DNA of 51,537 nucleotides from contig CAIOGI010000007.1 of the NCBI GenBank assembly GCA_903857825.1, positions 1 to 51,537 of the forward strand, in the 5' to 3' direction. Shown here in pieces: positions 623-47,162 of this stretch. This DNA is from Candidatus Tayloriibacteriota bacterium. GTDB lineage: Bacteria > Patescibacteriota > Minisyncoccia > Phycocordibacterales > PALSA-1337. The notes under the pieces were generated by a model. It made no database searches. It was not told where the DNA came from and worked only from the letters and a program-made list of their open reading frames with translations. A program made the position numbers and the translations under genes. The first letter of the stretch is position 1; the number at the start of each line of letters is the position of its first letter.

Positions 623-2081
623 CTTGCATTATATTTAATACTGATAATCCCCCATCATCTCCAGTAGCAAAGTACAGTCTAGACCAATCACATGTCATTG
701 CTACAGGCTTGGAGTTTAAAGAAATCTCATATATCTTTTTTGACATTGTCGAATCCCATACTTGAAACTCCGATAGTGGAGCATGAGTGAGCAAATATAT
801 AAAAGGCATACGGATAAGCATGCCATATATACCACCAGGAATATCTTTTGAAAATTGCATTAAGTAATCTGTGCTTGTAGAAAAAATGAATACTTCATGA
901 TTTGTGATCTGATTTACTCCTCCGACTGTTCTTCCGAGACCGAGTATTCCTTCGAAATAGTCAATAACCTTTCCCTGCTGAACTTGCCAACCACCTGATG
1001 AAAAAATGTGTATGGAATGCATATTTTCTTTATCTAAAATATCTAACATACGCATCTGAGTTTCATCAGAAGTAGCCAAGTAAGCTATGTCATTATAAAT
1101 ATGAATATCATTTACCAAAGTATTTGTCTCAAAACTTCCGATTACTTTTGGGTTAAGTGGATCTCTTACATCTATACTATGAAACTCTGCTCCATCCCAT
1201 TTGCTTGTACCTAGATATATATAACCATTCTTATAATAAATAGAGCTTGCCTTTGGTGCTGTTGTGGTAGCTTGTGGAAATGGCAACTTTAATTGAGAAA
1301 TAATGCGCGGAAAACGTCGGTCATGTATATCAATTATTTGTAATTGAGACATTGAACTTGTATTGGCAGCATAGATATATGGACCAGCTACGGCAACTGA
1401 TGATAACCCTGGGCCAGTATTTATTGCAGAAATTATATATGGATTCTCAATAATATTTGTATCAATTATAAAAAGATCAGATTGGGATTGTATTGAAGAA
1501 TCAGCAGTAACATATGCTATTGAATTTCTAACTTCAATATCTGTACTATTATTACCAGCACCCAGAAAAACTGCAGAAGGAAAATACGAAACATTGTTTG
1601 CATCAAAATCAATTCTTTGTAGACATGAAGATTCTCCCCATGAATATATAAAATCTGATTTAATTATTCTCAAGGGCCCCTCTATGACTTCAGATGAATA
1701 ATTACCATACATATTTGCAGTTGTACTAGAGTTTACTATTGCCCTGTTTATTATAATTGAACTGCTTTTTAATATATCTAATTCCTTTAATGACCAAAGT
1801 TTAATTCCCTGCATTGAGGAATTTAATGAAAAGGTGGAAATAGTAAATAGCATGAACAGTGAAATAGCAATCATTATCTCTACCATTAAAATACCCTTAC
1901 TCAACAAAATTGGACTTGCTTGCTTGCGCGACATTGTTTGATTAATCAAACAAGAAGTACCCTTGTGGTGCTCGGAAGCTCTTTTATTTGTTAGCAAGCT
2001 AAAAATAAATGACTTCCTCACCGCGTCAAGTCTCAATTTTGTAAATAATCCCCTATTTTGTAAGATGATTTGTAATTTCAT
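615..2081 (-). CDS. pilin-like N-terminus fused to LVIVD-repeat beta-propeller (candidate pilus tip/adhesin protein)
   Basis: SKG|ILMVEIMIAISLFML prepilin-like motif; repeated units such as YIYAAN..LQIIDI, YIYLGT..FHSIDV, IAYLAT..MRMLDI. Start overlaps the pilC stop; an alternative start near 1934 is possible. Confidence 0.75.
   Translation of the reverse strand: MKLQIILQNRGLFTKLRLDAVRKSFIFSLLTNKRASEHHKGTSCLINQTMSRKQASPILLSKGILMVEIMIAISLFMLFTISTFSLNSSMQGIKLWSLKELDILKSSSIIINRAIVNSSTTANMYGNYSSEVIEGPLRIIKSDFIYSWGESSCLQRIDFDANNVSYFPSAVFLGAGNNSTDIEVRNSIAYVTADSSIQSQSDLFIIDTNIIENPYIISAINTGPGLSSVAVAGPYIYAANTSSMSQLQIIDIHDRRFPRIISQLKLPFPQATTTAPKASSIYYKNGYIYLGTSKWDGAEFHSIDVRDPLNPKVIGSFETNTLVNDIHIYNDIAYLATSDETQMRMLDILDKENMHSIHIFSSGGWQVQQGKVIDYFEGILGLGRTVGGVNQITNHEVFIFSTSTDYLMQFSKDIPGGIYGMLIRMPFIYLLTHAPLSEFQVWDSTMSKKIYEISLNSKPVAMTCDWSRLYFATGDDGGLSVLNIMQDE
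1906..2040 (+). repeat. dispersed palindromic element, copy 1 (135 bp), with nested module at 1923-1965
   Basis: Ends AAAATTGGACTTG...CAAGTCTCAATTTT; homologous to 15279-15412 and to the reverse complement of 47070-47162. Confidence 0.85.
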
Positions 2082-3141
2082 AGACAGGTAAAATTATTGA
2101 TAATGCAATCGATCCAACGACTATACCCATAAAAATCATGAGAATTGGTTCTATGAGTGCAGAAAACCTCTTCAGAAGATTATCCAAATCTTGTTCAAGA
2201 ATCTTTGAGCAATGTCCGAGCATTAATGCTAGATTCCCTGTTTTCTCTCCGATAGAACACATGTCTATCATTATCTGAAAAAATATATCAGGATATTTTG
2301 ACATTGAATTTGAAAAGGAAATACCTTGAACTGATTCTTTGTGAATTTCCTTTATTGAATTTATATAAATAATATTTTTTAACGAGTCTATAGAAAAAGT
2401 ATGAAATTCAGATACTGATCGGCCAGATGATAGTAAAATTTCTCCTATACTGCACAAAGATGAGAGTATGCTTAATTTTAAGTATGTTGAGTATATTGGA
2501 ATTTTTAATAGGATTTTATGTAAGTAATACCTAAAATATGTGTATCTTTTTATTAAAATAAAAAATGTAATACTAATGAAGACAATAAATCCGATTACTT
2601 GTAGTCCGTATAATATTGAATATTCATAAAGTGCTTTTATTAGTAAGGTCAAAAATGGTAGATCGATATTCATACTATTTAACATCGGTAAAATCTTGGG
2701 GAAAATATACATTACAAGGAATAAAGACATGCAAATAGTGGCAAAGAAAATAAATGCTGGATATATAAGTGTGGTTATTATCTTTTTCTTCAATTCATTT
2801 CTCTTTTCCAAATTACTTACAATTTCAGAAAGCGACTCGATCAAGGTACCAGAATGCTCTCCATTTTTTATCAAAGTAATGAGCAATTGATCAAACTTTA
2901 CTTTCGAATCAATCATACTTTTTGACAATGATATGCCACGCTCACAGCTTCTTATTAAATATTCATATATCTTTTTACGTTTTAGTGAATTATCCATGGA
3001 CATCATGACACTCAGTGACTGGGTAAGAGAAATATCTGAAGCCAATAATAAAGACAGTCTTTGTGCAAAAAATATTTGATCTGTGATTGAAAATGAATTT
3101 TTAGTATTATTCATAAAATATCTTAAATTAGTCATGAACAA
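2053..3141 (-). CDS. pilC: type IV pilus/T2SS inner-membrane platform protein (PilC/GspF family)
   Basis: Two T2SSF repeats (GEHSGTL; GEKTGNL...LIEPILMIFMGIVVG); directly downstream of the ATPase. Confidence 0.92.
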   Translation of the reverse strand: MFMTNLRYFMNNTKNSFSITDQIFFAQRLSLLLASDISLTQSLSVMMSMDNSLKRKKIYEYLIRSCERGISLSKSMIDSKVKFDQLLITLIKNGEHSGTLIESLSEIVSNLEKRNELKKKIITTLIYPAFIFFATICMSLFLVMYIFPKILPMLNSMNIDLPFLTLLIKALYEYSILYGLQVIGFIVFISITFFILIKRYTYFRYYLHKILLKIPIYSTYLKLSILSSLCSIGEILLSSGRSVSEFHTFSIDSLKNIIYINSIKEIHKESVQGISFSNSMSKYPDIFFQIMIDMCSIGEKTGNLALMLGHCSKILEQDLDNLLKRFSALIEPILMIFMGIVVGSIALSIILPVYEITNHLTK

Positions 3142-4258
3142 CTCTAAGTACCTCTTCTCTACTGGTTATTCCTTTTTCTACTTTTTCCATTCCATCTTCA
3201 TACATAGTTATCATTCCCTTGCTTTTCACATATCTACCAATTTCTGTCATAGAAATATGCGACATAATATATTTTCTTAATTCATCATCTATAAATAGTG
3301 TTTCTGCGATTACTGTTCTTCCTTTATAACCAATGGTTCCACAAGTCAAACAACCTATTCCTTTGCATTCTTGGCAAATCTTTCTCACTAGCCTTTGAGC
3401 AATAATAATCGAAAGTGTAGAGGCTATAAGATATGGGTCTATCTTCATATCAATCAAACGAGGAATAGCTCCAAGTGCAGAATTTGTATGTAATGTGGAC
3501 AATAGTAAATGTCCTGTCAGAGAGATATTTGTGGCTATCTGTGCTGTTTCCGTATCTCGTATTTCACCAACCATAATAATGTCTGGATCTTGTCGTACTA
3601 TAGAACGTAAACCATTTGCAAAAGTAATACCATGTTTTGACTGTATTTGAATTTGTCTTACGCCATGTATTGCATACTCGATAGGATCTTCGAGTGTGAT
3701 TATGCTCTTATTTAATGAGGATAATGAATTTATGAGTGAATATAAAGTAGAAGTTTTACCAGAGCCAGTGGGACCAGTGACCAGAATCATTCCCTGATGA
3801 TGAGACAATGAAATATTTATCCTATCTATATCATGCTCAGAAAAACCGAGCTTTACTAATGACATCGAGTCATTTTCATTTCTCAATATTCTCAAGACTG
3901 CATTTTCTCCATAATGCGTAGGTATAATAGAGACGCGAATATCACAATCACAGAAACCTTGATCAAATCTGAATCTCCCATCTTGCGGTACAAAGTGTAT
4001 ATCTGTTCTAAGTCCTGAAATAACTTTTATTCTAGCAATCATTTCTTCATGCATTTCACTTCTCAATGTATCGGTATACACAAGCACACCATCAATACGA
4101 AATCTAATAACAACACCTTCTGGATATGGATCGATATGAATATCAGATGCTCCTTTGTGATATGAAAAAGCAATAATAGAATCCACCAACTCTACTACTG
4201 AACCTATATCATGTAGCACTAATTCATTAAAATTTATTTTATAATTTTTATCTGTCAT
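3128..4258 (-). CDS. pilB: type IV pilus assembly ATPase (PilB/GspE family), short form
   Basis: ASDIHIDP, RFRIDG, PQDGRF, Walker A GPTGSGKT, TLEDPIEY, RQDPDIIMVGEIRD, TGHLLLSTLHTN and a CxxC..CxxC zinc motif. Confidence 0.93.
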   Translation of the reverse strand: MTDKNYKINFNELVLHDIGSVVELVDSIIAFSYHKGASDIHIDPYPEGVVIRFRIDGVLVYTDTLRSEMHEEMIARIKVISGLRTDIHFVPQDGRFRFDQGFCDCDIRVSIIPTHYGENAVLRILRNENDSMSLVKLGFSEHDIDRINISLSHHQGMILVTGPTGSGKTSTLYSLINSLSSLNKSIITLEDPIEYAIHGVRQIQIQSKHGITFANGLRSIVRQDPDIIMVGEIRDTETAQIATNISLTGHLLLSTLHTNSALGAIPRLIDMKIDPYLIASTLSIIIAQRLVRKICQECKGIGCLTCGTIGYKGRTVIAETLFIDDELRKYIMSHISMTEIGRYVKSKGMITMYEDGMEKVEKGITSREEVLRVVHD

Positions 4259-4272
4259 CCATACAAGTTAAC

Positions 4273-4322
4273 AAATAGTTATTAAGAAATTATAAAGAAA
4301 TTCTAAAGATTTGATAAAGATT
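4273..4322 (-). promoter_or_regulatory. 50-bp operator-like element (copy 2) with -10 box TAACTT directly upstream of pilB
   Basis: Identical to 26-75; followed by TAACTT and then the pilB ATG 6 nt later. Confidence 0.75.
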
Positions 4323-4481
4323 GGGGATAACTTTGATGAAATATGAGGAAAAGTCGTCAGGGGTTGTGTTATTTGAGTATTGTGGTATGATTTTTAACTA
4401 GATCTGACGCGATTCTTATCTGGGTGCACAGCATGTGCAGTAGAAAGAATAGTGCTCAGCGGCAAATGGAAGACGGATCGT

Positions 4482-4751
4482 ATGGCAAAAACACAACAGC
4501 TGCAGGAAGAGGAGGTTATTCACCTCAAATCATGGAGGAAAATGAAGCAGGATATTGGACGCGAGATCCATTCGCAGAAAGTCTGCGCACGGAAGCTCCG
4601 CCTCCAAGGGGATACGAGCGGCACTGCTGGTCATTTGGAAGACTGCAGCAGAACCACGACCAGTACGGCTGGTAACAACAAGGAAGAAAAACCGCTCCGG
4701 CGAAATTTCGGCCGAAAGTCTGTGCGAGCCTTTCCTCCAGCCTTTCACTGA
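4482..4751 (+). CDS. orphan hypothetical protein (GC-rich cassette 1)
   Basis: 89-aa ORF between an extended -10 (TGGTATGAT, about 4383-4391) and a terminator. A competing overlapping frame exists at 4424-4675. Confidence 0.45.
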   Translation: MAKTQQLQEEEVIHLKSWRKMKQDIGREIHSQKVCARKLRLQGDTSGTAGHLEDCSRTTTSTAGNNKEEKPLRRNFGRKSVRAFPPAFH

Positions 4752-4767
4752 TCAAATCGCATCACTT

Positions 4768-4808
4768 CAGCCACCACCCGGCGTTCGGGTCGGTGGCTGT
4801 TATTTTTT
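4768..4808 (+). terminator. intrinsic terminator
   Basis: CAGCCACC-ACCCG...CGGGT-CGGTGGCTG stem followed by TTATTTTTT. Confidence 0.8.
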
Positions 4809-4844
4809 ACACAGTTCAAGACTTGCAATTTAAATACAACTATT

Positions 4845-4887
4845 GGCCCCCCCGCCCAGCCTCCCAGGCAGGGCGGGGTCTCTTTTT
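4845..4887 (+). terminator. second intrinsic terminator
   Basis: CCCCGCCC...GGGCGGGG stem followed by TCTCTTTTT. Confidence 0.7.
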
Positions 4888-4927
4888 AACTTGAAATTTG
4901 GAAATAAAGTGCTAGTATTCTAAACTG

Positions 4928-5092
4928 ATGAGATCAACCAGCGATAAGAGAGTTCGCAGTAAGAGCAATGGGAGGCAATCAGGTCCTCGAGTAAAACCGA
5001 GAGCCAAGAAAAATCCAACCGTGAACCATAGGGCGAGTGACACTTGCCCAGGTCATCTGGATATGCCTCCTAATTGTACTCCCATGAACTAG
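4928..5092 (+). CDS. 54-aa basic orphan ORF, or a structured RNA (GC-rich cassette 2)
   Basis: MRSTSDKRVRSKSNGRQSGPRVKPRAKKNPTVNHRASDTCPGHLDMPPNCTPMN* follows TTGAAA-16-TAGTAT (4891-4918) and ends at a terminator. Confidence 0.4.
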   Translation: MRSTSDKRVRSKSNGRQSGPRVKPRAKKNPTVNHRASDTCPGHLDMPPNCTPMN

Positions 5093-5135
5093 CCACCTAC
5101 CCGAAAACAGTTCGGCGCCAGGTGGCTTATTTTTT
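5091..5135 (+). terminator. intrinsic terminator
   Basis: AGCCACCT...AGGTGGCT stem followed by TATTTTTT. Confidence 0.8.
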
Positions 5136-5199
5136 ATATTAATACGCAAAAGTTATCAACTTGCCCTATAAAGCAATCGTGTTAATATTAGATTTTAGA

Positions 5200-5403
5200 A
5201 TGAAAAAACCAAATACTCGACACGAGAACCGGCGACCTGCCTCCGCAGATCGTGCAGAAAATCAGCAAAAACTCATCATAGATGGGTATTGGGGAACTTC
5301 GCCAGAGCAACGTGACTTTACCATAGCAAAACCATGCTCTGTATATGTCACCCACAATTGCGATACGGGTACTGCCTCAAGCCAAATGCGATACTGTGCT
5401 TAA
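5200..5403 (+). CDS. 67-aa orphan hypothetical protein (GC-rich cassette 3)
   Basis: ATG follows TTGCCC...TAATAT (5161-5188); terminator CACCAGC...GCTGGTG plus T-tract at 5413-5451. Confidence 0.45.
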   Translation: MKKPNTRHENRRPASADRAENQQKLIIDGYWGTSPEQRDFTIAKPCSVYVTHNCDTGTASSQMRYCA

Positions 5404-5548
5404 CCTAACTCACACCAGCCCCTCCCGGGAGGCGCTGGTGGTAATCTTTTTATAGAGCTTAAACGTGCCAATCTCAAAATTTGACTTTTCTCCCATTTTT
5501 ATGCTTTAATTGAAACTCATTTGCCCCTCAGGGCATATTTTAAATAAA

Positions 5549-7348
5549 ATGGATATAAGAAACATAGCAATCATCGCCCACGTGGACCACGGAAAAACCA
5601 CCCTAACTGATGCCATCATGACACAGTGTGGACACGGAGACGATGGAACAATGGATTCGAACGCCCTAGAACAAGAGCGTGGTATTACTATTTATGCGAA
5701 AAACACATCAATAGAGTACAAAGGAACAAAGATAAACATAGTGGACACTCCAGGACACGCAGACTTCGGCTCAGAAGTAGAGCGAGTATTGCGATCTATC
5801 GACACAGTTCTACTAGTAGTCGATGCGCAGGAAGGACCAATGCCTCAAACACGTTTCGTTTTGAAGAAGTCACTTGAATTAGGATTGAAGCCAATAGTTA
5901 TAATAAATAAAATAGATAAACAGGCTGCAAACCCAAATCATTGCCATGAACAAGTATTGGAGCTATTCATGGAACTTGGTGCAAATGATGCTCAGCTAGA
6001 TTTCCCTACTATATATGCCATCGGACGTGAAGGAGTAGCTATGAGAAAACTAGAGGATGAGAGAAAAGATATTACTCCCCTTTTAGATATGGTTCTAGAG
6101 CATGTTCCACCAGCAAACAAAGATCATAGTGCTACTGCACCTCTTACAGTACAAACATTCAATCTTGGATATGACAATTTCCTAGGTCGACTAGCTATTG
6201 GACGTATTTATGATGGAACAATAAAGATGGGGCAAACAGTTTTTGAAAAAAAGATTGATGGTTCATCAAATTCAGGCAAAGTTACTAAACTTTTTACATT
6301 TGAAGGAAAAAAGAGAGTAGAAATACAAGAAGCAACTGCTGGTGACATTGTAACTATCGCAGGATTTCCTGATATATATATTGGCGAAACGTTAACTGAT
6401 AGTGCTGATACTCCAGCCCTTCCAGCAATAAAGATCGATGAGCCTACTATTTCTCTTAATTTCTATGTAAACAGTTCACCATTCGCAGGACGTGAAGGTA
6501 AATACGTCACTGGTCGTCAAATCCGCGAAAGGCTTGAGAAAGAATTGGAAATAAATGTCGGACTGAAAGTTAATTTCAATGCAAATGAATTTTATACAGT
6601 ATTTGGTCGTGGAGAACTTCATATTGCGATTCTTCTAGAAAATATGAGACGAGAGGGGTATGAACTTCAAGTCTCTCAGCCTCAGGTAATTATAAAAGAT
6701 ATTGATGGAGTAAAAAGTGAGCCTTTCGAGGAGCTAACTATTGATACGCCTGATGAATTTACTGGAGCTATAATAGAAAAGCTTGGAAAGAGGAAAGCAA
6801 TGATGACAGACATGAAAACAAAAGACGGTATTACTCGTATACTTTTCGAAATACCCACTCGTGGACTTCTAGGATATCGTAGTGCATTTGTTATAGATAC
6901 AAAAGGTAATGGAATTCTTGCTTCTAGATTTATTGATTTCAAACCTTATGCTGGAGAAATAGAAAAGCATAGTACAGGATCAATGACATCTATGATGACT
7001 GGAAAGGCACTCGCTTTTGCTATTTGGAATCTACAAGAAAGAGGACGAGTATTTATCGAACCAACTACAGAAGTTTACGAAGGTATGGTTGTTGGAGATA
7101 CATCAAAGGGCGATGATATGGATGTAAACCCATGTAAAGGTAAAGCAATGTCAAACATGCGTTCTTCTGGTAATGATGAACATATAATGCTCACACCCGC
7201 TTGGACTCTTGATGTTGAGAAAGGATTAGAGACAATGCGTGAAGATGAATATCTAGAGATTACTCCGAAAAATGTAAGACTAAGAAAGAGATTTCTAACA
7301 ACGACCGATAGATCAAGAGCAGGCAGAAAAGATCAAAGTGCGAATTAA
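5549..7348 (+). CDS. typA: translational GTPase TypA/BipA
   Basis: [39 protein letters not shown] and C-terminal [11 protein letters not shown]. Confidence 0.97.
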
Positions 7349-7389
7349 TTTGGCTTGCAAAAGATATTAAATATGTAATACTATAAACA

Positions 7390-7457
7390 TCTTTCGGTTA
7401 TCATAACCGTTAGGGTTTCACATCCAAGGGTTACCTTCCGCAAGGAGGGTAACTTTC
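7390..7457 (+). ncRNA. candidate small structured RNA convergent on the NYN gene (3' hairpin may also terminate typA)
   Basis: TTGCAA-18-TACTAT (7355-7384) lies after the typA stop; hairpins CGGTTA-TCA-TAACCG and GTTACCTTCC-GCAA-GGAGGGTAAC. Confidence 0.45.
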
Positions 7458-7459
7458 GT

Positions 7460-8089
7460 CTAGGAAGTAATGCTAGATTCTGGTCTGTGTTTAAGTTCCC
7501 TGCCCCAAATATCATCATCAATTTTTAATACATCAAAATATCCGTTTGTTCCAGTTCTTAATTCTTGAGATACATTATTTTTTGAAGAAAATATATAAAC
7601 ATTTTTATCTCTCTTTTTTAAATATGTAATCAAAGCAAGAAAATCAGAATCTCCTGTGAAAAACACTGCTATACTATATTTACTAATTAAATCTAAAGAA
7701 TCTATCGTTATTTCAACATCCATATTACCTTTTTCTTCGATCAATTCACCATTTTCAGTCAAAATACTTATTCTCTTTAACTTCTTCTTTCTAACCTCAA
7801 AACCCAGACCTAACTTTAAAAAAGTTAAAAACTTATGCTTTCCTTCCAAACTATATGGCCTTGTCCCCTGTGCTGGGTATGCAGAATAGTAATAGACCTT
7901 TATACTAGTTCCTTCAAACTTTTTCTTTATATAATCAGCAAGCTTTTTATAGTCAAAAAATCTACCCTTAGCCTTCTGAGATTCCCAGAGATTTGATGCG
8001 TCAATAAAAACATAAATTGTATTTATTTTAGATTGAGTATTTTTTAATTCTTGATTATTAGTATTTAGCATTATCAATATAATATACAT
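7460..8089 (-). CDS. NYN domain (LabA/DUF88, PIN-like) ribonuclease
   Basis: VFIDASN, EKGNMDVEITID and FTGDSDF acidic catalytic motifs; true start is probably near 8071. Confidence 0.92.
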   Translation of the reverse strand: MYIILIMLNTNNQELKNTQSKINTIYVFIDASNLWESQKAKGRFFDYKKLADYIKKKFEGTSIKVYYYSAYPAQGTRPYSLEGKHKFLTFLKLGLGFEVRKKKLKRISILTENGELIEEKGNMDVEITIDSLDLISKYSIAVFFTGDSDFLALITYLKKRDKNVYIFSSKNNVSQELRTGTNGYFDVLKIDDDIWGRELKHRPESSITS

Positions 8090-8151
8090 TTAAAAACTAA
8101 TTTCAATTGTGAAAATATAATTATTGTGTCGTAACTGAAATAATTAAATAT

Positions 8152-8192
8152 AAAAAGAAACAGCGACACACCACTTGGTGCATCGCTTGTTT
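8152..8192 (-). terminator. intrinsic terminator
   Basis: Minus strand AGCGATGCACCA-AG-TGGTGTGTCGCT followed by GTTTCTTTTT. Confidence 0.75.
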
Positions 8193-8205
8193 ATGAGAAA
8201 ACCTT

Positions 8206-8430
8206 TCATTCACTGGTGACTTCCAGACGCTTCCGTATCGTTGTCGGGAAGCTGGTGATATGTATCGAGGCCGATTTCCACACATCCACAGCAGGATCTC
8301 GCTCCCGTTCATCAAAATCAGCGGACTCAATTACATCCATCATCGAGCTGAATTGATCTCCACTTGTAAGCAAGCGCGTTAGCTCGTTTATTTTATTCAG
8401 CAGTCTTTGACTCATCTTTGGTATCTCCAT
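8206..8430 (-). CDS. 74-aa orphan hypothetical protein (GC-rich cassette)
   Basis: ORF between a minus-strand promoter TTTACA-17-TAGTTT (about 8506-8534) and a terminator. Confidence 0.5.
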   Translation of the reverse strand: MEIPKMSQRLLNKINELTRLLTSGDQFSSMMDVIESADFDERERDPAVDVWKSASIHITSFPTTIRKRLEVTSE

Positions 8431-8589
8431 CTTACGTCCATACTGGACGTGGTTGTTATAGACATGCTCCCTGAATGAATTCCAATCAAAGAGCTATATA
8501 TTTTTAAACTATCACGATGCTACAGTCTTGTAAATAGGGTGGGCACGCATTGGATATTGACTTCAAATATTTAGTGGTATTATACTTTT

Positions 8590-8708
8590 ACTGTCGAATA
8601 TGCTCGACTGGTGGATCGGTAAACGAGAGTTGAATCTCGGTGGCCCCCTGTAAATCGTAGGATTTACAGTTTGGTAACAAAACTCCGCATTTATGCGGTT
8701 TTTTGTTT
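8590..8708 (+). ncRNA. candidate multi-hairpin small RNA with its own promoter and terminator
   Basis: TTGACT-18-TATACT (8557-8586); hairpins GTCGA/TCGAC, CGAGA/TCTCG, CTGTAAATC/GATTTACAG; terminator CCGCA-TTTA-TGCGG plus T-tract; no substantial ORF. Confidence 0.6.
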
Positions 8709-8722
8709 TTATTTTTATTTGT

Positions 8723-9697
8723 TTACCCCCACTTACTCTTTATGTATTCTGTTGCTTCGCTCATAGAATATGGCTGAGTAGAATTACCGACTCTCACATA
8801 GAAGTCCTCTTTATTGTCTCCATTCTTTAGATATGCTGGCTTATGCCCTTCGTTAACTGTGACCAAGCATATTTCTTGATTTTCTATTTCCTCAAAACTG
8901 ACACCTACATATTTTGCAAAAGCCAAACCGATCATAGTCTTTACCAACATGCTCACATGATTTTCGAAACCATCTTTATCTTTTTTAGGCAAAGTCTTGT
9001 AGTCACTCTCTAATCCCATTACCTTTCCACTATCAGAAACACCGATAATTAAAGTTCCTCCATTCGCATTCAAAAAGCCAACAATAGTCTTGACCACCAT
9101 TTTTTCTACATCTTTACTAATTTCTCCTTTTCTAGCATCGTATCTCAAAGTTTCCTTAAACTCGGTAAATAATCCCTCCCCCTCCTTAATTAGAACTTTT
9201 GGATCACGTGTTGGAATACGTCCTGAGGTACTGCGTACCATTTGTTTTATTATGTGAACGTATTCATCAAAATTCGAAACGTTCTTTATCTTGGTAAATC
9301 GTCCGTTATTATGTTCAAGAATAATATTTGCATGATTCATAATTCTACCCAATGGACTTTGATGTATCTCAACCGCAGCTACATCTGAAAGATTCACTGA
9401 TTTTCTTTTTTTAAATAACAAACCAGTCTTTCTAATTATTTCCTTTTCATAAATCTCATAATGAGAGAAGTACCAATTTAAAAATAGTGCACTTATATAA
9501 AATAGTTGAAAAATAGAAAAAATAAGTATTTCAAAAATATCAAAACGAATATAGTCTGCCAAACCTAGATCTCCATATACATGTGAATAATCAGTCGCAA
9601 AGGAAATCGCAAAGAAAAACAATGAAGCAATTATTTCCATATAAAGGACATTTCTAAGGAAAACTAAAGGTCCCTCTTTGATTATTATTCGCCTCAT
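8723..9697 (-). CDS. membrane protein: two TM helices, bacterial PH (bPH_2/DUF304-like) domain and AlbA_2/Schlafen domain
   Basis: YEIYEKEIIRKTGLLFKKRKSVNLSDV..V...QSPLGRI matches bPH_2; EGLFTEFKET, GFLNANGGTLIIGVSD and FYVRVGNST match AlbA_2. Confidence 0.85.
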   Translation of the reverse strand: MRRIIIKEGPLVFLRNVLYMEIIASLFFFAISFATDYSHVYGDLGLADYIRFDIFEILIFSIFQLFYISALFLNWYFSHYEIYEKEIIRKTGLLFKKRKSVNLSDVAAVEIHQSPLGRIMNHANIILEHNNGRFTKIKNVSNFDEYVHIIKQMVRSTSGRIPTRDPKVLIKEGEGLFTEFKETLRYDARKGEISKDVEKMVVKTIVGFLNANGGTLIIGVSDSGKVMGLESDYKTLPKKDKDGFENHVSMLVKTMIGLAFAKYVGVSFEEIENQEICLVTVNEGHKPAYLKNGDNKEDFYVRVGNSTQPYSMSEATEYIKSKWG

Positions 9698-9737
9698 AGA
9701 ACCTATTTTACCACAATTATTGAACTTTATCTTTTTA

Positions 9738-10322
9738 TTAATCCGCGTTGTAAATACTCATCGCTTTATCTTTTCCCTCCTTTATCAACACTTCAATAGC
9801 CTCTCCAACTCTCTTTGAAACTTTTTTTATTACTTTAACTTCTTCATCCTTCAGTTTTCCCAAAATAAATTTCTCGATTTTATCATCGCCATGCGGAACT
9901 TTAGCAACACCCTTAGCATTCTCTGGGGCCACACCAATACGAATTCTTAAAAATGCCTCAGTTTTGACCGCCTTTATTATCGATTGTAAACCATTATGCC
10001 CTCCTGAGCTTCTATTATATGAAATTCTAATCTTCCCTAAAGGTAAATTAAAATCATCATAAATAACGATGAGCTTTTCTGCTGCTTTTATACTTTTTAC
10101 GAGATGTGCAACTGCCTTACCAGAATTATTCATAAAAGTTTCTGGGGAAACGAGCTTCGTCTTATCTTTTCCAATTTTTACTTCTGAAACTAAGCCATTA
10201 ATTTTTTTATCAAAAGAAAAATCCGTATCAAAAATAGACATAAGAACAATTCGTCCAATATTGTGACGAGTGTTCTCGTATTCTTGACCAGGATTTCCTA
10301 AACCAGCGATTATATATGACAT
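9738..10322 (-). CDS. pth: peptidyl-tRNA hydrolase
   Basis: IAGLGNPGQEYENTRHNIG, TFMNNSG, GGHNGLQSI, RIRIGV. Confidence 0.96.
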   Translation of the reverse strand: MSYIIAGLGNPGQEYENTRHNIGRIVLMSIFDTDFSFDKKINGLVSEVKIGKDKTKLVSPETFMNNSGKAVAHLVKSIKAAEKLIVIYDDFNLPLGKIRISYNRSSGGHNGLQSIIKAVKTEAFLRIRIGVAPENAKGVAKVPHGDDKIEKFILGKLKDEEVKVIKKVSKRVGEAIEVLIKEGKDKAMSIYNAD

Positions 10323-10385
10323 AACACTAGTGTGACATAAACATAAATCTTGTGTCAAATGACTATTCATAATACAATTACCAGT

Positions 10386-10943
10386 ATGAATCCTGAATCT
10401 CCACAAAAGAAAGAAAGTTTTATAAAAGAAACAGTCAAATTTGCTATTATCGCCTTAATCATTGTAATACCCATTCGTAAATATGTAGCTCAACCATTTA
10501 TTGTAAGTGGCGCCTCGATGGATCCCTCTTTCGCATCAGGACAATATTTAATCGTTGATCAATTAACATATCATATAAGCGATCCGAAAAGAGACGATGT
10601 GATCATTTTTCGATATCCGAATAATCCAAGTACATTTTTCATAAAAAGAATAATAGGATTACCAGGAGAAACATTAACAATGGATAGCGGAAAGGTAACT
10701 ATAATAAATAAGGAAAATCCTGAAGGTTTTTTACTCCAAGAAAACTATATTACAAAGGAACATCGCACATCTGATTCATTTACAATCGCACTAGGAGAAA
10801 CAGAATATTTCGTTATGGGCGACAATAGACCTCAAAGTTCTGATTCCAGATCATGGGGTCCATTAGAATCAAAGTACATCATTGGTCGTCCATTTTTACG
10901 ACTAATGCCAGTCTCTCAGATATCAATATTTCCAGGAAGATAG
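10386..10943 (+). CDS. lepB: signal peptidase I
   Basis: SGASMDP catalytic Ser, IKRIIGLPGE catalytic Lys, GDNRPQSSDSRSWG. Confidence 0.95.
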   Translation: MNPESPQKKESFIKETVKFAIIALIIVIPIRKYVAQPFIVSGASMDPSFASGQYLIVDQLTYHISDPKRDDVIIFRYPNNPSTFFIKRIIGLPGETLTMDSGKVTIINKENPEGFLLQENYITKEHRTSDSFTIALGETEYFVMGDNRPQSSDSRSWGPLESKYIIGRPFLRLMPVSQISIFPGR

Positions 10944-10951
10944 AAAATTTC

Positions 10952-12184
10952 ATGAAAAAACAAAAACCAGATCCAAAAGACAACAAGTACATATCGTATG
11001 ATAATCTCGATAAAATTGGTGAGACAGCTTTGTACTATGGTTTCAACCCTCACAAAAGTCCTGATATAAAGAAAGTTGACTTAGATAATGCAAAATCTCT
11101 ATTAGATGGAGATCATATTGATGATACAGATAAGAAGAAATCAATATTGCCACTTCACGTAGAAGAAAAAATCGCCCTACTCAGAAATTATATTGAAGAA
11201 AATATGCAAAGTATGAGTCAGCCCGTAATGCTATATTTCAAGGAACCTTTTAAGGGTTCTCTAAAAAAAGGCTCAGAGACTATATATCGATATTGTGATT
11301 TAGAAATACTTGGCAATTCTAGAAGCATTGCTGAAGCAACTCTAATACAAACAGCAAAGACAATGCTTCTTGAAAATGGTTATGAAAATATTTGTGTAGA
11401 GATAAATAGTATTGGAGATAAAGAATCTATAAATAAATTTAATAGAGATCTCACAAACTACTATAAAAGAAACGTAAATGAAATGCATGCAGAATGTCGT
11501 CAGCTATTAAAGAAAGATCCTTTTGAACTTCTGAGTTGTCAAAATGAAAAATGTTTAAAAATAAATAATGAAGCTCCAAAGTCTATAGAATTCTTATCAG
11601 AATCGAGTCGAATACATTTTCAAGAGGTATTAGAATACTTGGAAGCGCTAAATATTCCTTACAAAATAAATAATAGTCTTATTGGCAATCGTAAATATTG
11701 TACAGAAACAATTTTTACAATAAACAATTTGAATACTGAAAATAAAAAAAATAATCAAAAAATACTTGCCATAGGTGTTAGATATGATGGTCTTTCAAAG
11801 AAAATGGGTATTAAAAAAGAAATACAAGGTGTCGGAATATCAATTCTAATCAAAGACTATAATGCTGATCTTAGAAAAGATATAAAAAAGGCAAAGAAAC
11901 CTTTTGCGTCATTTGTACAGCTTGGATTTGAATCAAAACTGCTTAGTCTAAGTGTAATAGAATCATTAAGAAGGGTTAAAATACCATTATATCTTTCATT
12001 GTCAAAAGATCGCCTAGGAGCACAGGTGTCTATTTTAGAAAAGCAGAATATTCCATATTCAGTAATAATGGGCAAAAAAGAAGCCATGGAAAAAAGTGTT
12101 ATTGTGAGAAATATGGATACTCACGCCCAAGAAACGGTGTTTTTGCATGAATTACCGAAATACATGAAAAAACTTGAGAAATAA
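10952..12184 (+). CDS. HisRS/HisZ-like protein with HGTP anticodon-binding domain, degenerate catalytic motifs
   Basis: EINSIGDKE..., YKINNSLIGNRKYCTETIF, GVRYDGL and C-terminal PYSVIMGKKE..VIVRNM resemble HisRS; motif 2 (FRYERPQ) is not recognisable. Confidence 0.75.
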   Translation: MKKQKPDPKDNKYISYDNLDKIGETALYYGFNPHKSPDIKKVDLDNAKSLLDGDHIDDTDKKKSILPLHVEEKIALLRNYIEENMQSMSQPVMLYFKEPFKGSLKKGSETIYRYCDLEILGNSRSIAEATLIQTAKTMLLENGYENICVEINSIGDKESINKFNRDLTNYYKRNVNEMHAECRQLLKKDPFELLSCQNEKCLKINNEAPKSIEFLSESSRIHFQEVLEYLEALNIPYKINNSLIGNRKYCTETIFTINNLNTENKKNNQKILAIGVRYDGLSKKMGIKKEIQGVGISILIKDYNADLRKDIKKAKKPFASFVQLGFESKLLSLSVIESLRRVKIPLYLSLSKDRLGAQVSILEKQNIPYSVIMGKKEAMEKSVIVRNMDTHAQETVFLHELPKYMKKLEK

Positions 12185-12211
12185 TTATAGGTGTGATATT
12201 ATATTTTACCT

Positions 12212-12457
12212 ATGATAAATATAGAAATAAAACGAAACGGCACAGAAAATAGCATGGGGGTTCTTCGCCGTTTTACAAAGAAAGTACAGGGTTCTGGAAT
12301 ACTACCTAGAGTAAGGAGCCTTAGATACAATCAACGTGACCTATCTCATTACAAGACAAAGATGAAGACTTTAAAATCTATAAGAAGAAAGCTTGAAATA
12401 CTCGAACTTATCAAGCTAGGCAAGATGCAAGAAAAAACATCCAGATTTTCAAAGTAA
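12212..12457 (+). CDS. rpsU: divergent 30S ribosomal protein bS21-like
   Basis: Small basic protein with E....LRRFTKKVQGSGIL...R..RY pattern; adjacent to ybeY. Confidence 0.7.
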   Translation: MINIEIKRNGTENSMGVLRRFTKKVQGSGILPRVRSLRYNQRDLSHYKTKMKTLKSIRRKLEILELIKLGKMQEKTSRFSK

Positions 12458-12458
12458 G

Positions 12459-12845
12459 ATGAGCGATACTTCATTCAACCTAACAAACAACACAAAAGCC
12501 AAGCTTCCTCGCTTGGCTTTTGCTGATATGAAAAATGCTATTCTTGGTAAAAAATATGAACTCTCACTAATTATAGTAAGTAAAAAAGAAATTCAGAAAC
12601 TTAACAATCGTTATAGAGATATAAATAAGCCAACCGATATACTCAGCTTCCCTCTTTCAGAAAGTTTTGGGGAAATTTATATAAATCCAGATATGACAAA
12701 AATAGAAGCAAAGAAATTTGATAGAAATTATGAAAACTTTTTTGCCTTTTTACTTATCCACGGTTTAGTGCATTTGAAAGGATTCGATCATGGTAGTACA
12801 ATGGAGAGTATAGAAACTCGTTTCAGAAAAAAATTTGGAATTTGA
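12459..12845 (+). CDS. ybeY: rRNA maturation endoribonuclease YbeY
   Basis: LNNRYRDINKPTDILSF, GEIYI, HGLVHLKGFDH. Confidence 0.95.
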   Translation: MSDTSFNLTNNTKAKLPRLAFADMKNAILGKKYELSLIIVSKKEIQKLNNRYRDINKPTDILSFPLSESFGEIYINPDMTKIEAKKFDRNYENFFAFLLIHGLVHLKGFDHGSTMESIETRFRKKFGI

Positions 12846-12857
12846 GCTTCTGACTAA

Positions 12858-14042
12858 ATGTCACGAAATATAATTACCGGAATAGATATTGGAACACACC
12901 ACGTTAAAGTGGTTATTTGTGATTCTCAAGAAAAAAACGAAAAAGGATTCCCGAAGATAATAGGAATTGGTAATTCTGAGTCGAGAGGCTTGAGGCACGG
13001 TTATATAGTTAATGTTCAAGATGTAACAAATAGTATTAAAGAAGCAGTGATGAAAGCAGAAAATCAGGCTGATGTAAAAGTTAAAAAAGCCTTTGTTTCA
13101 ATAAACGGTATTGGGCTCGGGAGTATTACCTGTACTAGTTCTATTATTATTTCTAGAGCAGATTTAGAAATAACTGCTTTAGATGTGAAAAGGGTTCAAG
13201 ATCAATGTGAAAAGGATATCCCTGCAAATTCTGCACTAAATAAGAAAATAATTCATTCTATCCCTCTTTACTTTAAAGTTGATGGAAAGATTACACTTGG
13301 TAAACCAGAAGGAATGAAGGGTAGTAAACTAGAAGTCAAAACACTATATATAACATGTCTTGAACAGCATTTAAATGACATTATACAAGCCGTAGAAGAA
13401 GTTGGCATAAGTGTTCAAGATGTAATGGCATCTCCAATAGCTACAAGTCTAGTTACGCTTTCAAAATCTCAGAAAATTGCTGGGTGTGTTCTCGTAAACA
13501 TCGGAGCTGAAACTGTCTCCATTGCTGTATTTGAAAATAATATACCAGTATCATTGGAAGTCTTCCCCATTGGATCTACTGATATTACAAATGATATTGC
13601 ATTAGGATTAAAGGTTCCACTAGAAGAGGCGGAACAGATAAAGATCGGAGCTATTACCGGTAGCTCATATCCTAGAAAAAAACTTGAGGAAATAATACAA
13701 GCAAGATTATTTGATATTTTTGAATTGATAGAAAATCATTTAAAGAAGATTGGTAGGAATGAACTATTACCAGCTGGAATTATAATTATTGGTGGTGGAT
13801 CTGGACTTACAGATATAGAAGAAATAGCCAAAACATCGTTAAAGCTTCCATCAAGGAGAGGTACTGTATATCTTGGAATACAAGAAAAACAAAGTTATAG
13901 AGATTCTACATGGGCGGTTGCGTATGGATTGTGCATTTTGGGAACTCATGCCAACGAGGACACTCCTATAAATACCAGTGCAAAGTTTTTTGAAAGACTA
14001 TTTAAAGCCACAAAAGGCTGGCTAAAGCAATTTTTGCCTTAA
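12858..14042 (+). CDS. ftsA: cell division protein FtsA
   Basis: GIDIGT, SRGLRHGYIVN, IGSTDITNDIA, GGGS; directly upstream of ftsZ. Confidence 0.95.
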   Translation: MSRNIITGIDIGTHHVKVVICDSQEKNEKGFPKIIGIGNSESRGLRHGYIVNVQDVTNSIKEAVMKAENQADVKVKKAFVSINGIGLGSITCTSSIIISRADLEITALDVKRVQDQCEKDIPANSALNKKIIHSIPLYFKVDGKITLGKPEGMKGSKLEVKTLYITCLEQHLNDIIQAVEEVGISVQDVMASPIATSLVTLSKSQKIAGCVLVNIGAETVSIAVFENNIPVSLEVFPIGSTDITNDIALGLKVPLEEAEQIKIGAITGSSYPRKKLEEIIQARLFDIFELIENHLKKIGRNELLPAGIIIIGGGSGLTDIEEIAKTSLKLPSRRGTVYLGIQEKQSYRDSTWAVAYGLCILGTHANEDTPINTSAKFFERLFKATKGWLKQFLP

Positions 14043-14068
14043 TTTTAGTTATCTGGTAAGATTTGAGC

Positions 14069-15280
14069 ATGCCTAACATTACCCCAGATATTGAAGCATT
14101 CGCAAGAATAAAAGTGATCGGTGTCGGAGGATCAGGAAAAAATGCCGTAAACCACATGATTAACTCAAAAGTTAAGGGGGTTGATTTTATTTCTATTAAT
14201 ACTGATGCTCAAGATTTACATCACTCTTTAGCAAAGAAAAGAATTCACATTGGAAAAAGTCTTACTCGAGGACTAGGCACTGGTATGAACCCTGAGATGG
14301 GGAAAAAAGCCATAGAAGAAACTAAAGAGGAAGTTCAAGAAGCCCTAAAGGGAGCAGATATGGTTTTTGTAGCGTGTGGACTAGGTGGAGGAACAGGTAG
14401 TGGTGCTAGCCCCGTCGTTGCTCGAACAGCAAAAGAACTTGGCGCACTAACTGTTGCTGTTGTTACCAAACCATTCTTTTTTGAAGGTCAACAAAGATCC
14501 AAGATTTCAGAAACAGCTCTAGAAGAATTAAGAAAAGAAGTTGATGCTATTATTGTTATACCAAATGACAGACTACTTACAACAATAGACAAAAATACTA
14601 CCGTAAGGAATGCCTTCTCTATATGTGATGAAATACTTCGCCAAGCTGTCGAAGGTATTTCTGATCTCATAACAACACCAGGACTTATCAATATCGACTT
14701 TGCGGATATAAGAACTGTTATGGAAAACGCTGGTTCAGCACTTATGGGTATTGGATCTGCATCAGGAGAAAATCGTGCTATAGAAGCAGCAAAATTAGCT
14801 ATCAATTCCCCACTTCTTGATGTTTCAATAACTGGTGCAAAGGGTGTATTGTTCTCTATTGCTGGAGGTGAAGATCTAACAATGTTTGAAATACAAGACG
14901 CAGCAAAGGTCATCACAGAATCAGTAGATCCAAATGCAAAAGTAATATTTGGTACAGTTAAAGATGACAAATTAAAGAAAAATGAAGTCAAAGTTACAGT
15001 CATAGCAGCTGGTTTTCCTGAATTGATTCCAGGTACAGAGAACAAAGACAATGTTCAAAACAAAGTTTTTACAAATACAAGTACAGGTACAAATACACAG
15101 AATAACGACGCAAAACAGAAAGACGATACGAAAGGTAAAATCTTCAATTCAATCCCTGCTCAACCTACAGTAAATAAAGACCGAATGGAAAGCAAAATTG
15201 AAGAAAAGAAAAACGAAGTTCAAGATGATGATGATTGGGGTGCAGTTCCCGCTTTCTTGAGGAGATCGAAGTTGAAATAA
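14069..15280 (+). CDS. ftsZ: cell division protein FtsZ
   Basis: IKVIGVGGSG, GLGGGTGSG tubulin signature, INIDFAD and C-terminal VPAFLRR. Confidence 0.98.
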   Translation: MPNITPDIEAFARIKVIGVGGSGKNAVNHMINSKVKGVDFISINTDAQDLHHSLAKKRIHIGKSLTRGLGTGMNPEMGKKAIEETKEEVQEALKGADMVFVACGLGGGTGSGASPVVARTAKELGALTVAVVTKPFFFEGQQRSKISETALEELRKEVDAIIVIPNDRLLTTIDKNTTVRNAFSICDEILRQAVEGISDLITTPGLINIDFADIRTVMENAGSALMGIGSASGENRAIEAAKLAINSPLLDVSITGAKGVLFSIAGGEDLTMFEIQDAAKVITESVDPNAKVIFGTVKDDKLKKNEVKVTVIAAGFPELIPGTENKDNVQNKVFTNTSTGTNTQNNDAKQKDDTKGKIFNSIPAQPTVNKDRMESKIEEKKNEVQDDDDWGAVPAFLRRSKLK

Positions 15281-15412
15281 AATTGGACTCGCCTGCTTGC
15301 GCTCGGGAGCACTTTATTTTTATAGCCAAGGCACTTGTTGTTTGATAAATCAAACAATGTCGCGCAAGCTAGTAAAAATAAAGTCTCCCTCACCGCGTCG
15401 AGTCTCAATTTT
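15279..15412 (+). repeat. dispersed palindromic element, copy 2 (134 bp), with inverted nested module at 15327-15368
   Basis: AAAATTGGACTCG...CGAGTCTCAATTTT abutting the ftsZ stop codon. Confidence 0.85.
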
Positions 15413-15433
15413 ATAAGTAATCTTTAACAAAAC

Positions 15434-16357
15434 ATGATTTACGACTTAACAATTATAGGTGGAGGGCCAGCGGGAGTAGCTGCGGGTGTTTATGCTGCAA
15501 GAAAAAAATTAAAAACACTTTTTATAACTAAAGATTGGAATAGTCAGAGTACTGTATCAGAAGGTATTGAAAACTGGATAGGAACAGTGAGGATTTCTGG
15601 TGCAGATTTTGCAAAAAGTCTTGAAAAACATTTAAAGGCATATTCGAAAGACGTGGTAGATATTCATGAAGGCGAGTCGTGTGAAAAAATTGAAAAAACA
15701 GATGCAGGTTTCAAGATAATCACATCAAAAGGTTCATATGAGTCAAAAACCGTACTTATTGCCACTGGAAGCTTCAGAAGAAAATTGGATATTCCTGGTG
15801 CTGATATTTTTGAACACAAGGGCCTCACCTATTGTGCCTCTTGTGATGGACCAATGTTCTCTGGACAGGACGTGGTAGTTGTTGGTGGTGGAAACGCTGC
15901 ATTTGAGAGTGCATCTCAATTGTTGGCTTATTGTAAAAGTGTAACTTTGGTAAATAGAAGCGATAAGTTCCGAGCTGATCCAGTGACGATAGATGCTGTG
16001 TCAAAGAATGCGCATTTCAAAATAATTAAAAATGCTGTGCCAAAGGAGGTTAAAGGAGATAAATTTGTTTCATCTTTTATTTACAAAGATTCAACAACAA
16101 ATACTGATAATGAATTAGCGGCTACAGGTATTTTCGTAGAAATTGGTTCAATCCCAACTACATACTTTGCGAAAGATTTAGTGAAGTTGACAGAGATCGG
16201 CCACGTTGTAACAGATTCAAAGAATCAGCAAACCTCGGTTAAAGGTATCTGGGCTGCAGGAGATTGTACAGATGGTCTATATCATCAAAACAATATAGCT
16301 GCGGGAGATGCTGTGAAGGCACTTGAGGATATTTATCTATTTCTAAAAGCTAAGTAG
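15434..16357 (+). CDS. trxB: thioredoxin reductase / AhpF-like FAD-dependent disulfide oxidoreductase
   Basis: GGGPAG, YCASCDG redox motif, VGGGNAA, AAGDCT. Confidence 0.85.
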   Translation: MIYDLTIIGGGPAGVAAGVYAARKKLKTLFITKDWNSQSTVSEGIENWIGTVRISGADFAKSLEKHLKAYSKDVVDIHEGESCEKIEKTDAGFKIITSKGSYESKTVLIATGSFRRKLDIPGADIFEHKGLTYCASCDGPMFSGQDVVVVGGGNAAFESASQLLAYCKSVTLVNRSDKFRADPVTIDAVSKNAHFKIIKNAVPKEVKGDKFVSSFIYKDSTTNTDNELAATGIFVEIGSIPTTYFAKDLVKLTEIGHVVTDSKNQQTSVKGIWAAGDCTDGLYHQNNIAAGDAVKALEDIYLFLKAK

Positions 16358-16904: not shown

Positions 16905-16942
16905 TTTGATTTGACTTTAAGTTTGAGTTTGATAATATATGG

Positions 16943-17092: not shown

Positions 17093-17106
17093 CCCCACAC
17101 CATATC

Positions 17107-17156: not shown

Positions 17157-17207
17157 TTGATTGGGAAATGGAAATAAGGCTGGTGAAATACCAGTGGGTT
17201 GATCAAA

Positions 17208-31985: not shown

Positions 31986-32021
31986 AAACAAAAAACCTCC
32001 TGTTAAGAAGGTTTTTTGTTT
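31986..32021 (-). terminator. terminator of rnpB
   Basis: AAACAAAAAACCT-CCTGTTAAGA-AGGTTTTTTGTTT inverted repeat. Confidence 0.8.
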
Positions 32022-32022
32022 A

Positions 32023-32445
32023 ACATGTTTATAAGCCGAGTTCTGTATCTAAAATTTATCTTTCGATAATCTTAGACGACAATCATTTATCTGGGATCAA
32101 TCTTACGATTAACCTCAAGCGGCACTCCCGTCGGCGAGAAATCCATTGGTATATTTTATGTTTTGGATTCCTTGTCGACGGGCACGGCCTTGCACTGAAG
32201 TAAGGATTTTGCCGTTGCAATCACAAAGTTACCTTTATGACTTATCCACAGTTTGCACTTTGGATACCCTGTCTTTTCAGACTATTTCTAAAAATTGCTT
32301 TCTAGAAAAGGGCGTCTCTGTTCGCACCTCGCAACTCACGATGGACGGGTGTTACCCGCTACTATTCTGTCTAAATTTACATTTAGCCAGTGCTCGGACT
32401 TTCCTCTATTGGAACTATTGCTCCAACAGCGATTGTCTAACATGT
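32023..32445 (-). ncRNA. rnpB: RNase P RNA
   Basis: Minus strand has GAGGAAAGTCC near the 5' end and ACAGAACTCGGCTTA at the 3' end; P1 ACATGTT/AACATGT; extended -10 TGGTATAAT just upstream. Confidence 0.95.
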
Positions 32446-32464
32446 ATAAGTATTATACCACAAA

Positions 32465-47059: not shown

Positions 47060-47069
47060 GGCAATTTGA

Positions 47070-47162
47070 AAAATTGAGACTCGGCACGGTGAGGAGGTCC
47101 TACTTTTTTGAGTTTACGAAAAAAAGAGGAGCCTCCGAGCGCAAGTCGACGAGTCCAATTTT
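47070..47162 (-). repeat. dispersed palindromic element, copy 3 (93 bp), without the nested module
   Basis: Reverse complement reads AAAATTGGACTCGTCGACTTGCGCTCGGAGG...CCTCCTCACCGTGCCGAGTCTCAATTTT; ends 10 nt before the murB ATG. Confidence 0.85.

Follow-up and report, generated by a model that had tools for sequence, protein, structure and literature searches.

The REP (repetitive extragenic palindrome) and REPIN elements of proteobacteria are mobilised by RAYT transposases of the Y1 type, and their consensus carries a 5' GTAG-type tetranucleotide. Mobile elements are believed to be scarce in ultra-small symbiotic bacteria. Other families of small repeats are treated in parts of one published account (PMC10969869), where the Correia elements of Neisseria and the ERIC elements of Enterobacteria, both MITEs (short for miniature inverted-repeat transposable elements), are described as co-transcribed with their neighbours, sometimes intragenic, and variable in copy number from species to species. 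The same parts of that account describe SPRITE, a repeat of Streptococcus pneumoniae that resembles a rho-independent terminator and that clusters with BOX and RUP, each inserting into the others, as well as the Rickettsia palindromic elements (RPE), which are frequently inserted in frame (PMC10969869). The subject here is a hairpin repeat present three times in a stretch of 51,537 nt (the window) from a Candidatus Tayloriibacteriota bacterium (contig CAIOGI010000007.1 of assembly GCA_903857825.1). An earlier note, made from the letters of the window, had taken the three copies for a “structure-conserved mobile repeat or RNA module” of a family that it did not recognise.

The repeat probably represents a genus-restricted family of non-autonomous palindromic DNA repeats of the REP/MITE/SPRITE type, occupying a niche just behind stop codons. 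Like REP and REPIN elements and the bacterial interspersed mosaic elements (BIMEs), its members are non-coding imperfect palindromes present in dozens of copies, extragenic behind genes, in both orientations and without target duplication; covarying stems are likewise shared with REP/REPIN, and the composite doublets with fixed spacers of the relative G019 may be. The unit, however, is 93 nt rather than 20-40 nt long, there is no conserved 5' GTAG-type tetranucleotide, and no Y1/RAYT gene is found in this genome (G000) or in the other high-copy genomes. The 90-140 nt length, the terminal inverted repeats and the size variants formed by internal insertion recall the Correia and ERIC elements as described in the parts of the account already cited (PMC10969869), but direct target duplication is seen in 0/33 copies at 3 nt, and no parent insertion sequence (IS) with the same ends was found. 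The terminator-like layout and the nesting of copies in one another are shared with SPRITE, BOX and RUP, although host and sequence are unrelated and the copies fail a simple terminator consensus. As for the RPE, compared here by description, one of the 33 copies lies in frame in a housekeeping gene (tgt) of a reduced genome, whereas the rest lie behind stops. The direct duplication and the parent IS that define a MITE were not found, nor was the RAYT that defines a REPIN. What is new is that, instead of a direct duplication, exactly two reverse-complementary bases flank the element on each side. We know of no description of such flanks for REPs.

About 0.4% of a 0.78-Mb genome consists of one hairpin repeat for which no transposase can be recognised and whose apparently recent moves include one into a gene of the essential type. 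Its exact two-base complementary flanks offer a concrete, testable handle on how orphan palindromic repeats move, and if its hairpins end or stabilise transcripts, they would also shape expression in genomes that have almost no intergenic space.

Copies, fold and covariation

The window is contig C7 of a 779-kb genome in 13 contigs with a G+C content of 0.36. In this genome, a motif scan located 29 complete copies as well as 3 orphan right ends, and a covariance model built from 18 of its short copies returned 43 matches, which correspond to 33 distinct full copies, one 36-nt mini hairpin, and 9 re-hits on the reverse strand. Four of the copies form a diverged subfamily with the ends AAAATnGGCTCGCCAA...TTGGCTCACACnATTTT. 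Neither the motif scan nor the covariance model found a copy on contig C9 (92.6 kb, G+C 0.388), contig C8, or three shorter contigs.

Family members are 89-167 nt long, around a core of 89-99 nt (typically about 93 nt). The core begins with A4 and ends with T4, giving an A4/hairpin/T4 layout on both strands. Its terminal inverted repeats (AAAATTGGACTCG / CGAGTC-T-CAATTTT), its small size and its lack of an open reading frame (ORF) are those of a MITE. The core folds as a long imperfect hairpin of four stems, P1 to P4, with conserved asymmetric loops: CTTGCG..TCGG on one arm and CCTCACCG on the other. The outermost stem, P1, has 13 bp and one bulged T on its 3' arm. Inside it come a 7-nt 5' loop ending in CTT and the 4 bp of P2, followed by an internal loop that sets TC against TCACC, the 5 bp of P3 and a bulged C. 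The innermost stem, P4, is long and A+T-rich, and the apical loop is often of the C(GCAA)G type. There are two outer and three inner stem types, and these are combined in mixed fashion among the copies. Copies of 134-139 nt consist of the core plus a second small hairpin unit of roughly 42 nt, which splits the GCGC of CTTGCGCTCGG in one orientation in three copies (including copy 1 of the window) and in the opposite orientation in four. A 37-38-nt relative of this unit occupies the apical loop of five copies, copy 2 of the window among them. Two copies have a variant nested hairpin whose stem changes are compensated, and one has a different 74-nt insert. The layout of the nested 42-nt unit is shared by a second dispersed repeat of the genome, about 57-60 nt long and of the form CGAC - hairpin - GAAGTRCCCTTGTGGTA, which often occurs as 2-3 tandem copies upstream of genes. 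A few bases ahead of the ATG, the last of its units finishes with ...GTGGTATAAT and so looks like an extended -10 promoter.

The range of the family was scored on samples with strict filters, so that absence means not found in the genomes searched. In a first sample, the covariance model had matches in 15 of 36 same-genus genomes, and the 24 genomes that represented 24 further families of the order had none. At E<=1e-4, matches were found in 21 of 44 other same-genus genomes (1-17 each; 23 had none) and in 0/96 genomes from 13 other genera of the family. Copy number within the genus therefore runs from 0 to about 33, and the repeat family is probably restricted to it. Thus the search for further copies with a covariance model, which the earlier note had proposed, returned 33 in the genome itself and others across the genus, with none in the sampled genomes of the sister genera. 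Copies in the relative G061 are up to 92.5% identical to those of G000; the flanking genes are 66-71% identical. The looser pattern CTTGCGCTCGG-N33-60-CCTCACCG was discarded as a probe of range: at least 152 genomic and viral loci were listed, none with the A-run/T-run signature, and these are chance matches in G+C-rich genomes. None of the 33 viral loci matches the covariance model, and the pattern is too loose to be informative.

The stem differences that the earlier note had read as compensatory are so. Double compensatory changes occur at 13 of the 31 pairs among the 18 short copies of G000, and at 27 of 31 across 63 copies from G000 and about 20 relatives. In this 63-copy alignment, which was fitted to the covariance model and so favours structure, 94.7% of cells pair, against 79.6 +/- 0.5% in shuffles (0/500 reach the observed value) and 46-65% with slid partners. 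At three of the four pairs of P2, G-U is found in 31, 26 and 14 of the 63 sequences, and the pairing is good on one strand only. A rival explanation takes the repeat for a structured RNA of one strand (a small RNA, or a cis element that binds protein) and the covariation for a sign of selection on the RNA fold. The asymmetric loops and the 3'-arm bulge are conserved across the genus and, with the one-sided P2 and the frequent C(GCAA)G loops, speak for an RNA. G-T pairs and stable GNA-type loops, however, occur in DNA hairpins too. The orientation of the copies also goes against a strand-specific RNA: relative to the nearest incoming gene, 19 are antisense and 8 sense, and relative to the local gene majority or GC skew, 16 are in the same and 17 in the opposite direction. 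Moreover, one copy is translated inside tgt, and Rfam offers no match. At the gathering score, Rfam has no match at the window copies; at E<=1, searches with four copies brought up only L20_leader, whose 23.1 bits (E 0.27) fall short of its gathering score of 58.7 and which was taken as chance.

There is also direct evidence of arm-to-arm correction in the DNA palindrome, and so covariation alone is not proof of selection on an RNA. In the copy at C1:76789 and in the mini hairpin at C3:17956, the 3' arm is perfectly complementary to the 5' arm and the bulge is lost; the hairpin behind the 5S ribosomal RNA (rRNA) gene is of the 3'-arm type on both sides; and the tgt copy has three compensated changes in P1. 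We consider a strand-specific RNA very improbable. The mobile-repeat half of the earlier proposal is borne out by the 33 copies, their covarying pairs, filled and empty sites, and the unique tgt insertion, while the RNA-module half is disfavoured by the two orientations and by arm-to-arm correction. Its view that the family was not a known one also stands: along with the lack of an Rfam match, no description of such repeats was located in the literature on Parcubacteria, Patescibacteria, and Saccharibacteria, as judged by listings.

Flanking bases and orthologous sites

The bases immediately outside the core are complementary across the element. At position +-1 this is true of all 33 copies in G000 (partner-shuffle mean 11.4, maximum 20), and at +-2 of 29 of the 33 (mean 14.9, maximum 25); at +-3 the count falls to chance (12/33 against 10.5). 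Among 45 copies in relatives, the corresponding values are 44/45, 41/45 and 6/45. Direct target duplication in the G000 flanks is seen in 5/33 copies at 2 nt and in 0/33 at both 3 nt and 4 nt. The flank pairs seen are GT/AC, AC/GT, GC/GC, AG/CT, GA/TC, GG/CC, and AT/AT; on the left side, the outermost base is a purine. Cores that are almost identical can have different pairs, as at C10:59068 (gt/ac) and C10:45670 (ac/gt), or in three type-B copies with ac/gt, ga/tc, and gt/ac; therefore each insertion determines the pair anew, and the core does not bring it along. The possibility that these 2+2 bases belong to the element was rejected on the grounds of these differing pairs, and also because a 139-nt unit breaks the frame of tgt. 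This frame is kept only by a unit that is a multiple of three: the 135-nt A4...T4 core fits, and the core with 2 or 4 more bases would not. The inserted unit is thus the A4...T4 core, standing between reverse-complementary dinucleotides of the form RN^N'Y. The nested 42-nt unit follows the same flank rule at GC^GC, in both orientations, and the copy at C1:33803 lies at the exact centre of an older palindrome. The rule may be read as insertion at the dyad of a 4-nt palindrome, and an immediate two-base correction from arm to arm would fit the data equally well.

One filled site is in the gene for tRNA-guanine transglycosylase (tgt, 439 aa), in which the copy at C5:7718-7852 lies in frame (135 nt, 45 codons, no stop). 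The Pfam TGT family matches the interrupted gene at E 3.3e-142 in two stretches; the gene is intact, its domain being split by the copy. The insert is absent from all 37 relatives that have the gene region (of 44 relatives), and the linker region measures 168-222 nt in the 12 relatives that were translated, against 300 nt in G000. The exact 23-nt flank of this site has no match in metagenome contigs. No other copy in G000 lies within a long open frame.

Intergenic sites point the same way. At the convergent gene pair of C1:76789, the element is absent in 20 of 22 relatives, whose two stops are 0-20 nt apart wherever both gene ends could be aligned; in G021, a family element sits at a different junction of the same pair. 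The ftsZ-trxB spacer, which holds copy 2 of the window, is 19 nt long and free of any hairpin in G013. In G062 it is occupied by a plain A-tract/hairpin/T-tract, in G016 by another subfamily, and in G019 by an inverted doublet. In metagenome contigs about 80% identical to G000, shared spacers are filled with the other orientation, another subfamily or at another junction; one such contig has the element where G000 has a plain hairpin, and at another of the compared sites G000 has an orphan arm beside a full copy. The comparison of filled and empty sites that the earlier note had suggested thus yielded orthologous spacers that are empty or independently filled. These comparisons support the view that the family is mobile and has multiplied within genomes.

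The same sites could be explained if the hairpins were ancient functional two-way terminators or hairpins of 3' untranslated regions, fixed at gene ends, homogenised by gene conversion and not mobile at all. The ftsZ-trxB spacer is filled in G000, G016 and G019 alike; 3 of the 5 contigs of one metagenome map to spacers also filled in G000; at two orthologous sites, a plain A-tract/hairpin/T-tract takes the place of the element present in another species; behind the 5S rRNA gene comes a mini hairpin of the family type; and the copies show outer and inner modules in reshuffled combinations. Fixed hairpins, however, would not account for the de novo insertion into tgt, for shared spacers that differ in junction, orientation and subfamily, for the 23 of 44 genus genomes without a match, for convergent stops 0-20 nt apart in most relatives, or for the short, hairpin-free spacer of G013. 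This explanation is therefore judged improbable, and mobile repeats are preferred.

Two further structures were seen in these relatives. In G009 (contig C63), the spacer orthologous to G000:C1:75900-77700 contains an unrelated 117-nt palindrome, GAAGACATAAATT...AATTTATGTCTTC. The copies of G000 stand single. In G019 there are four composite doublets, to which an extra orphan arm is joined. This composite unit of about 260 nt occurs at at least 4 sites on contig C8 of G019 (109760-110060, 177640-177930, 63745-64025, and 111020-111310) and is made up of an orphan left arm followed by two subfamily copies, the second of them inverted, with a spacer of 16-22 nt in between, all parts being flanked by AG/CT.

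Placement, movement and candidate enzymes

In 28 of the 33 copies, the stop of an incoming gene is no more than 60 nt away, and in 21 of these 28 the gap is 16 nt or less. When the nearest such gene is taken as the reference, 19 copies have their model strand antisense and 8 have it sense, with 1 tie (two-sided binomial about 0.05), and the even split with respect to the local gene majority or GC skew shows no bias. According to crude ORF calls, 6 elements lie in 93 convergent spacers, 23 in 547 tandem ones and 1 in 91 divergent ones, against 4.2, 21.1 and 4.6 expected per base, so that divergent spacers are only weakly depleted. A two-way terminator or a protective 3' hairpin is suggested by the A4/hairpin/T4 layout on both strands, by the sites behind stops, by the hairpin of the 5S rRNA gene, and by the plain hairpins at orthologous sites. 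In mRNA, the element may thus serve as a hairpin at the 3' end, stabilising the transcript or working in both directions as a terminator or attenuator, a role that we consider possible rather than probable.

For the movement itself, a model can be proposed. The element would move through a folded single-strand or cruciform intermediate, with pairing of the two flanking bases on either side, and the movement would be driven by an enzyme supplied in trans. Copies collect within about 16 nt behind stops, in either orientation, and nest in one another; templated correction from arm to arm and recombination between copies would maintain the pairing of the stems and mix inner with outer modules. A more specific version, which we regard as doubtful, is that both the family and the nested 42-nt unit move by an undescribed kind of transposition without target duplication. 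In such a reaction, the folded hairpin would land precisely on the dyad of some short palindrome (RN^N'Y; GC^GC in other copies and the centres of older hairpins are among these), building up concentric nested palindromes, and the enzyme would lie outside those transposase families known to handle hairpins that were searched (Y1 HUH, IS110 and TnpB-linked).

The earlier note had seen no transposase in the window, and the matches of the seven families searched are indeed all off its contig. Y1_Tnp (PF01797, which covers Y1 and RAYT) has 0 matches in G000, G019 and G021 and is also absent in G061 and G016. It is present in 6 of 45 genus genomes, 4 of which are without the element. TnpB-type proteins (PF07282), resolvases (PF00239), rve (PF00665) and DDE_1 (PF01609) likewise have 0 matches in G000. 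No parent IS with the same ends was found in the 13 contigs of G000, where every element end has its partner at most 167 nt away, although such an IS might lie at a contig break. The search for RAYT/TnpA or for an IS with matching ends thus extends the lack of such a transposase from the window to the 13 contigs of the genome. A single IS110 gene is present in G000, on C9, and IS110 passes the cut-off in only this one of 45 genomes. It was rejected as the mobiliser, being found in G000 only, beside tRNA-Glu, in a gene not flanked by element ends.

This IS110-family gene (G000:C9:82817-83251; locus L069 1486-2556) adjoins tRNA-Glu(ctc), and a 19-nt copy of the 3' part of the tRNA lies about 1.5 kb away, on a contig of higher G+C that is free of the hairpin repeat. 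The region upstream of the gene matches the element's GCTTGCTTGCGCTCG at 15 of 16 nt.

Two genes of the Phage_integrase family (tyrosine recombinases) are also present in G000, and one of these enzymes might use the repeats as folded sites of recombination (attC-like or Xer-type). It would suit such sites that the palindromes are imperfect, that their ends and unpaired bases are conserved and their centre is variable, and that they lie directly behind ORFs. The copies, however, stand single between core genes and not in arrays beside an integrase; their orientation is mixed; no cassette structure is seen; and their ends are AAAATTG/CAATTTT, where the consensus boxes of integron attC sites are RYYYAAC/GTTRRRY. 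Recombination sites of this kind are thus an extremely unlikely explanation. One of the integrase-family matches (G000:C1:42720-44510, minus strand) is broken into two parts, with about 1.25 kb between them, inside one open frame of 733 aa, which may indicate a large insertion, perhaps an intein, in an Xer-like recombinase.

Several observations weigh against mobile repeats that enter palindromes and act behind genes. Insertion at palindrome centres is argued from flank statistics, one in-frame case and nested copies, and no exact empty site was recovered for any intergenic copy. Many orthologous spacers are occupied in several species, which would also fit old elements evolving in concert. 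Among the families searched, no mobilising enzyme was found. A search of sequencing runs for the window listed 4 DNA runs, all of one study and perhaps its source, and no RNA run. The contigs of these runs, compared with window positions 1-20000, gave no empty allele: copy 1 is bridged in its filled form, the contigs break inside copy 2, joints inside the repeat come from other family copies, and no contig joins across a whole copy, so that these runs are uninformative on polymorphism. As for the terminator role, a simple consensus scan leaves the copies unflagged, since their T-run, at a length of only 4-5, pairs with the A-run; in addition, copy 3 precedes the murB start by 10 nt, and copy 1 adjoins a start codon.

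The window copies and their neighbours

The three copies reported in the window are all real and lie where the earlier note had put them (Table 1). Their quoted termini and the linkers CTTGCGC..CTCGG and CTCACCG are present, as are the stem variants GACTTG/CAAGTC and GACTCG/CGAGTC in the outer stem and GGAAG, GGGAG and GGAGG, with matching partners, in the inner one. The window contains 3 occurrences of the 24-nt right-end motif, where 0.00 would be expected from 100 shuffles, and both strands of each copy fold far better than shuffled sequences (z -3.8 to -8.2; 0/200 shuffles as good). Copies 1 and 2 are longer than copy 3 because each holds a nested hairpin, inserted at different positions of the core.

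Table 1. Positions of the hairpin repeats, their nested units and their flanks in the window, with sites of the second dispersed repeat elsewhere in the genome.
Feature	Coordinates	Strand	Description
Copy 1	1906..2040	+	135 nt: 93-nt core and nested insert
Nested 42-nt hairpin in copy 1	1928..1969	+	GCGACA - TTGTTTGAT.AATCAAACAA - GAAGTACCCTTGTGGT; at GC^GC of the core's CTTGCGCTCGG
Copy 2	15279..15412	+	134 nt: core and 37-38-nt related hairpin in apical loop
Nested hairpin, apical loop of copy 2	about 15325..15362	+	GCCAAGGCACTTG - TTGTTTGATAAATCAAACAA - TGTCG
Copy 3	47070..47162	-	plain 93-nt core
Flank dinucleotide, copy 1	AC 1904..1905		reverse-complementary to GT 2041-2042
Flank dinucleotide, copy 2	AT 15277..15278		reverse-complementary to AT 15413-15414
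Flank dinucleotide, copy 3	GA 47068..47069		reverse-complementary to TC 47163-47164
Second dispersed repeat, G000 (outside window)	C1:109172-109302, C2:30780-30853, C3:2114-2308, C6:26505, C8:29211-29307, C10:28643, C10:65782		

Copy 1 lies 12 nt past the stop of a T2SSF (pilC-like) gene (2053-3141, minus strand) and adjoins the TTG start (1904/1907) of a pilin-like ORF on the same strand, being antisense to both. The longest ORF at this place (615-2081, minus strand), for which a Pfam search gave no family match, runs through the copy; a TTG at 1904 or 1907 is likely its true start, giving a short MSKG-type leader followed by a hydrophobic pilin-like segment. The first two bases of copy 2 are overlapped by the ftsZ stop codon TAA (15278-15280), and a thioredoxin-reductase-like gene begins 21 nt downstream of the copy. 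Copy 3 is sense to both of its neighbours, murB, whose start is at 47059 (minus strand), and a His_Phos_1 gene (47375-48121, minus strand) whose stop is 212 nt away. Elsewhere in the window, the class A RNase P RNA (32016-32448, minus strand) measures 433 nt against a model of 367 positions, and thus contains extra sequence.

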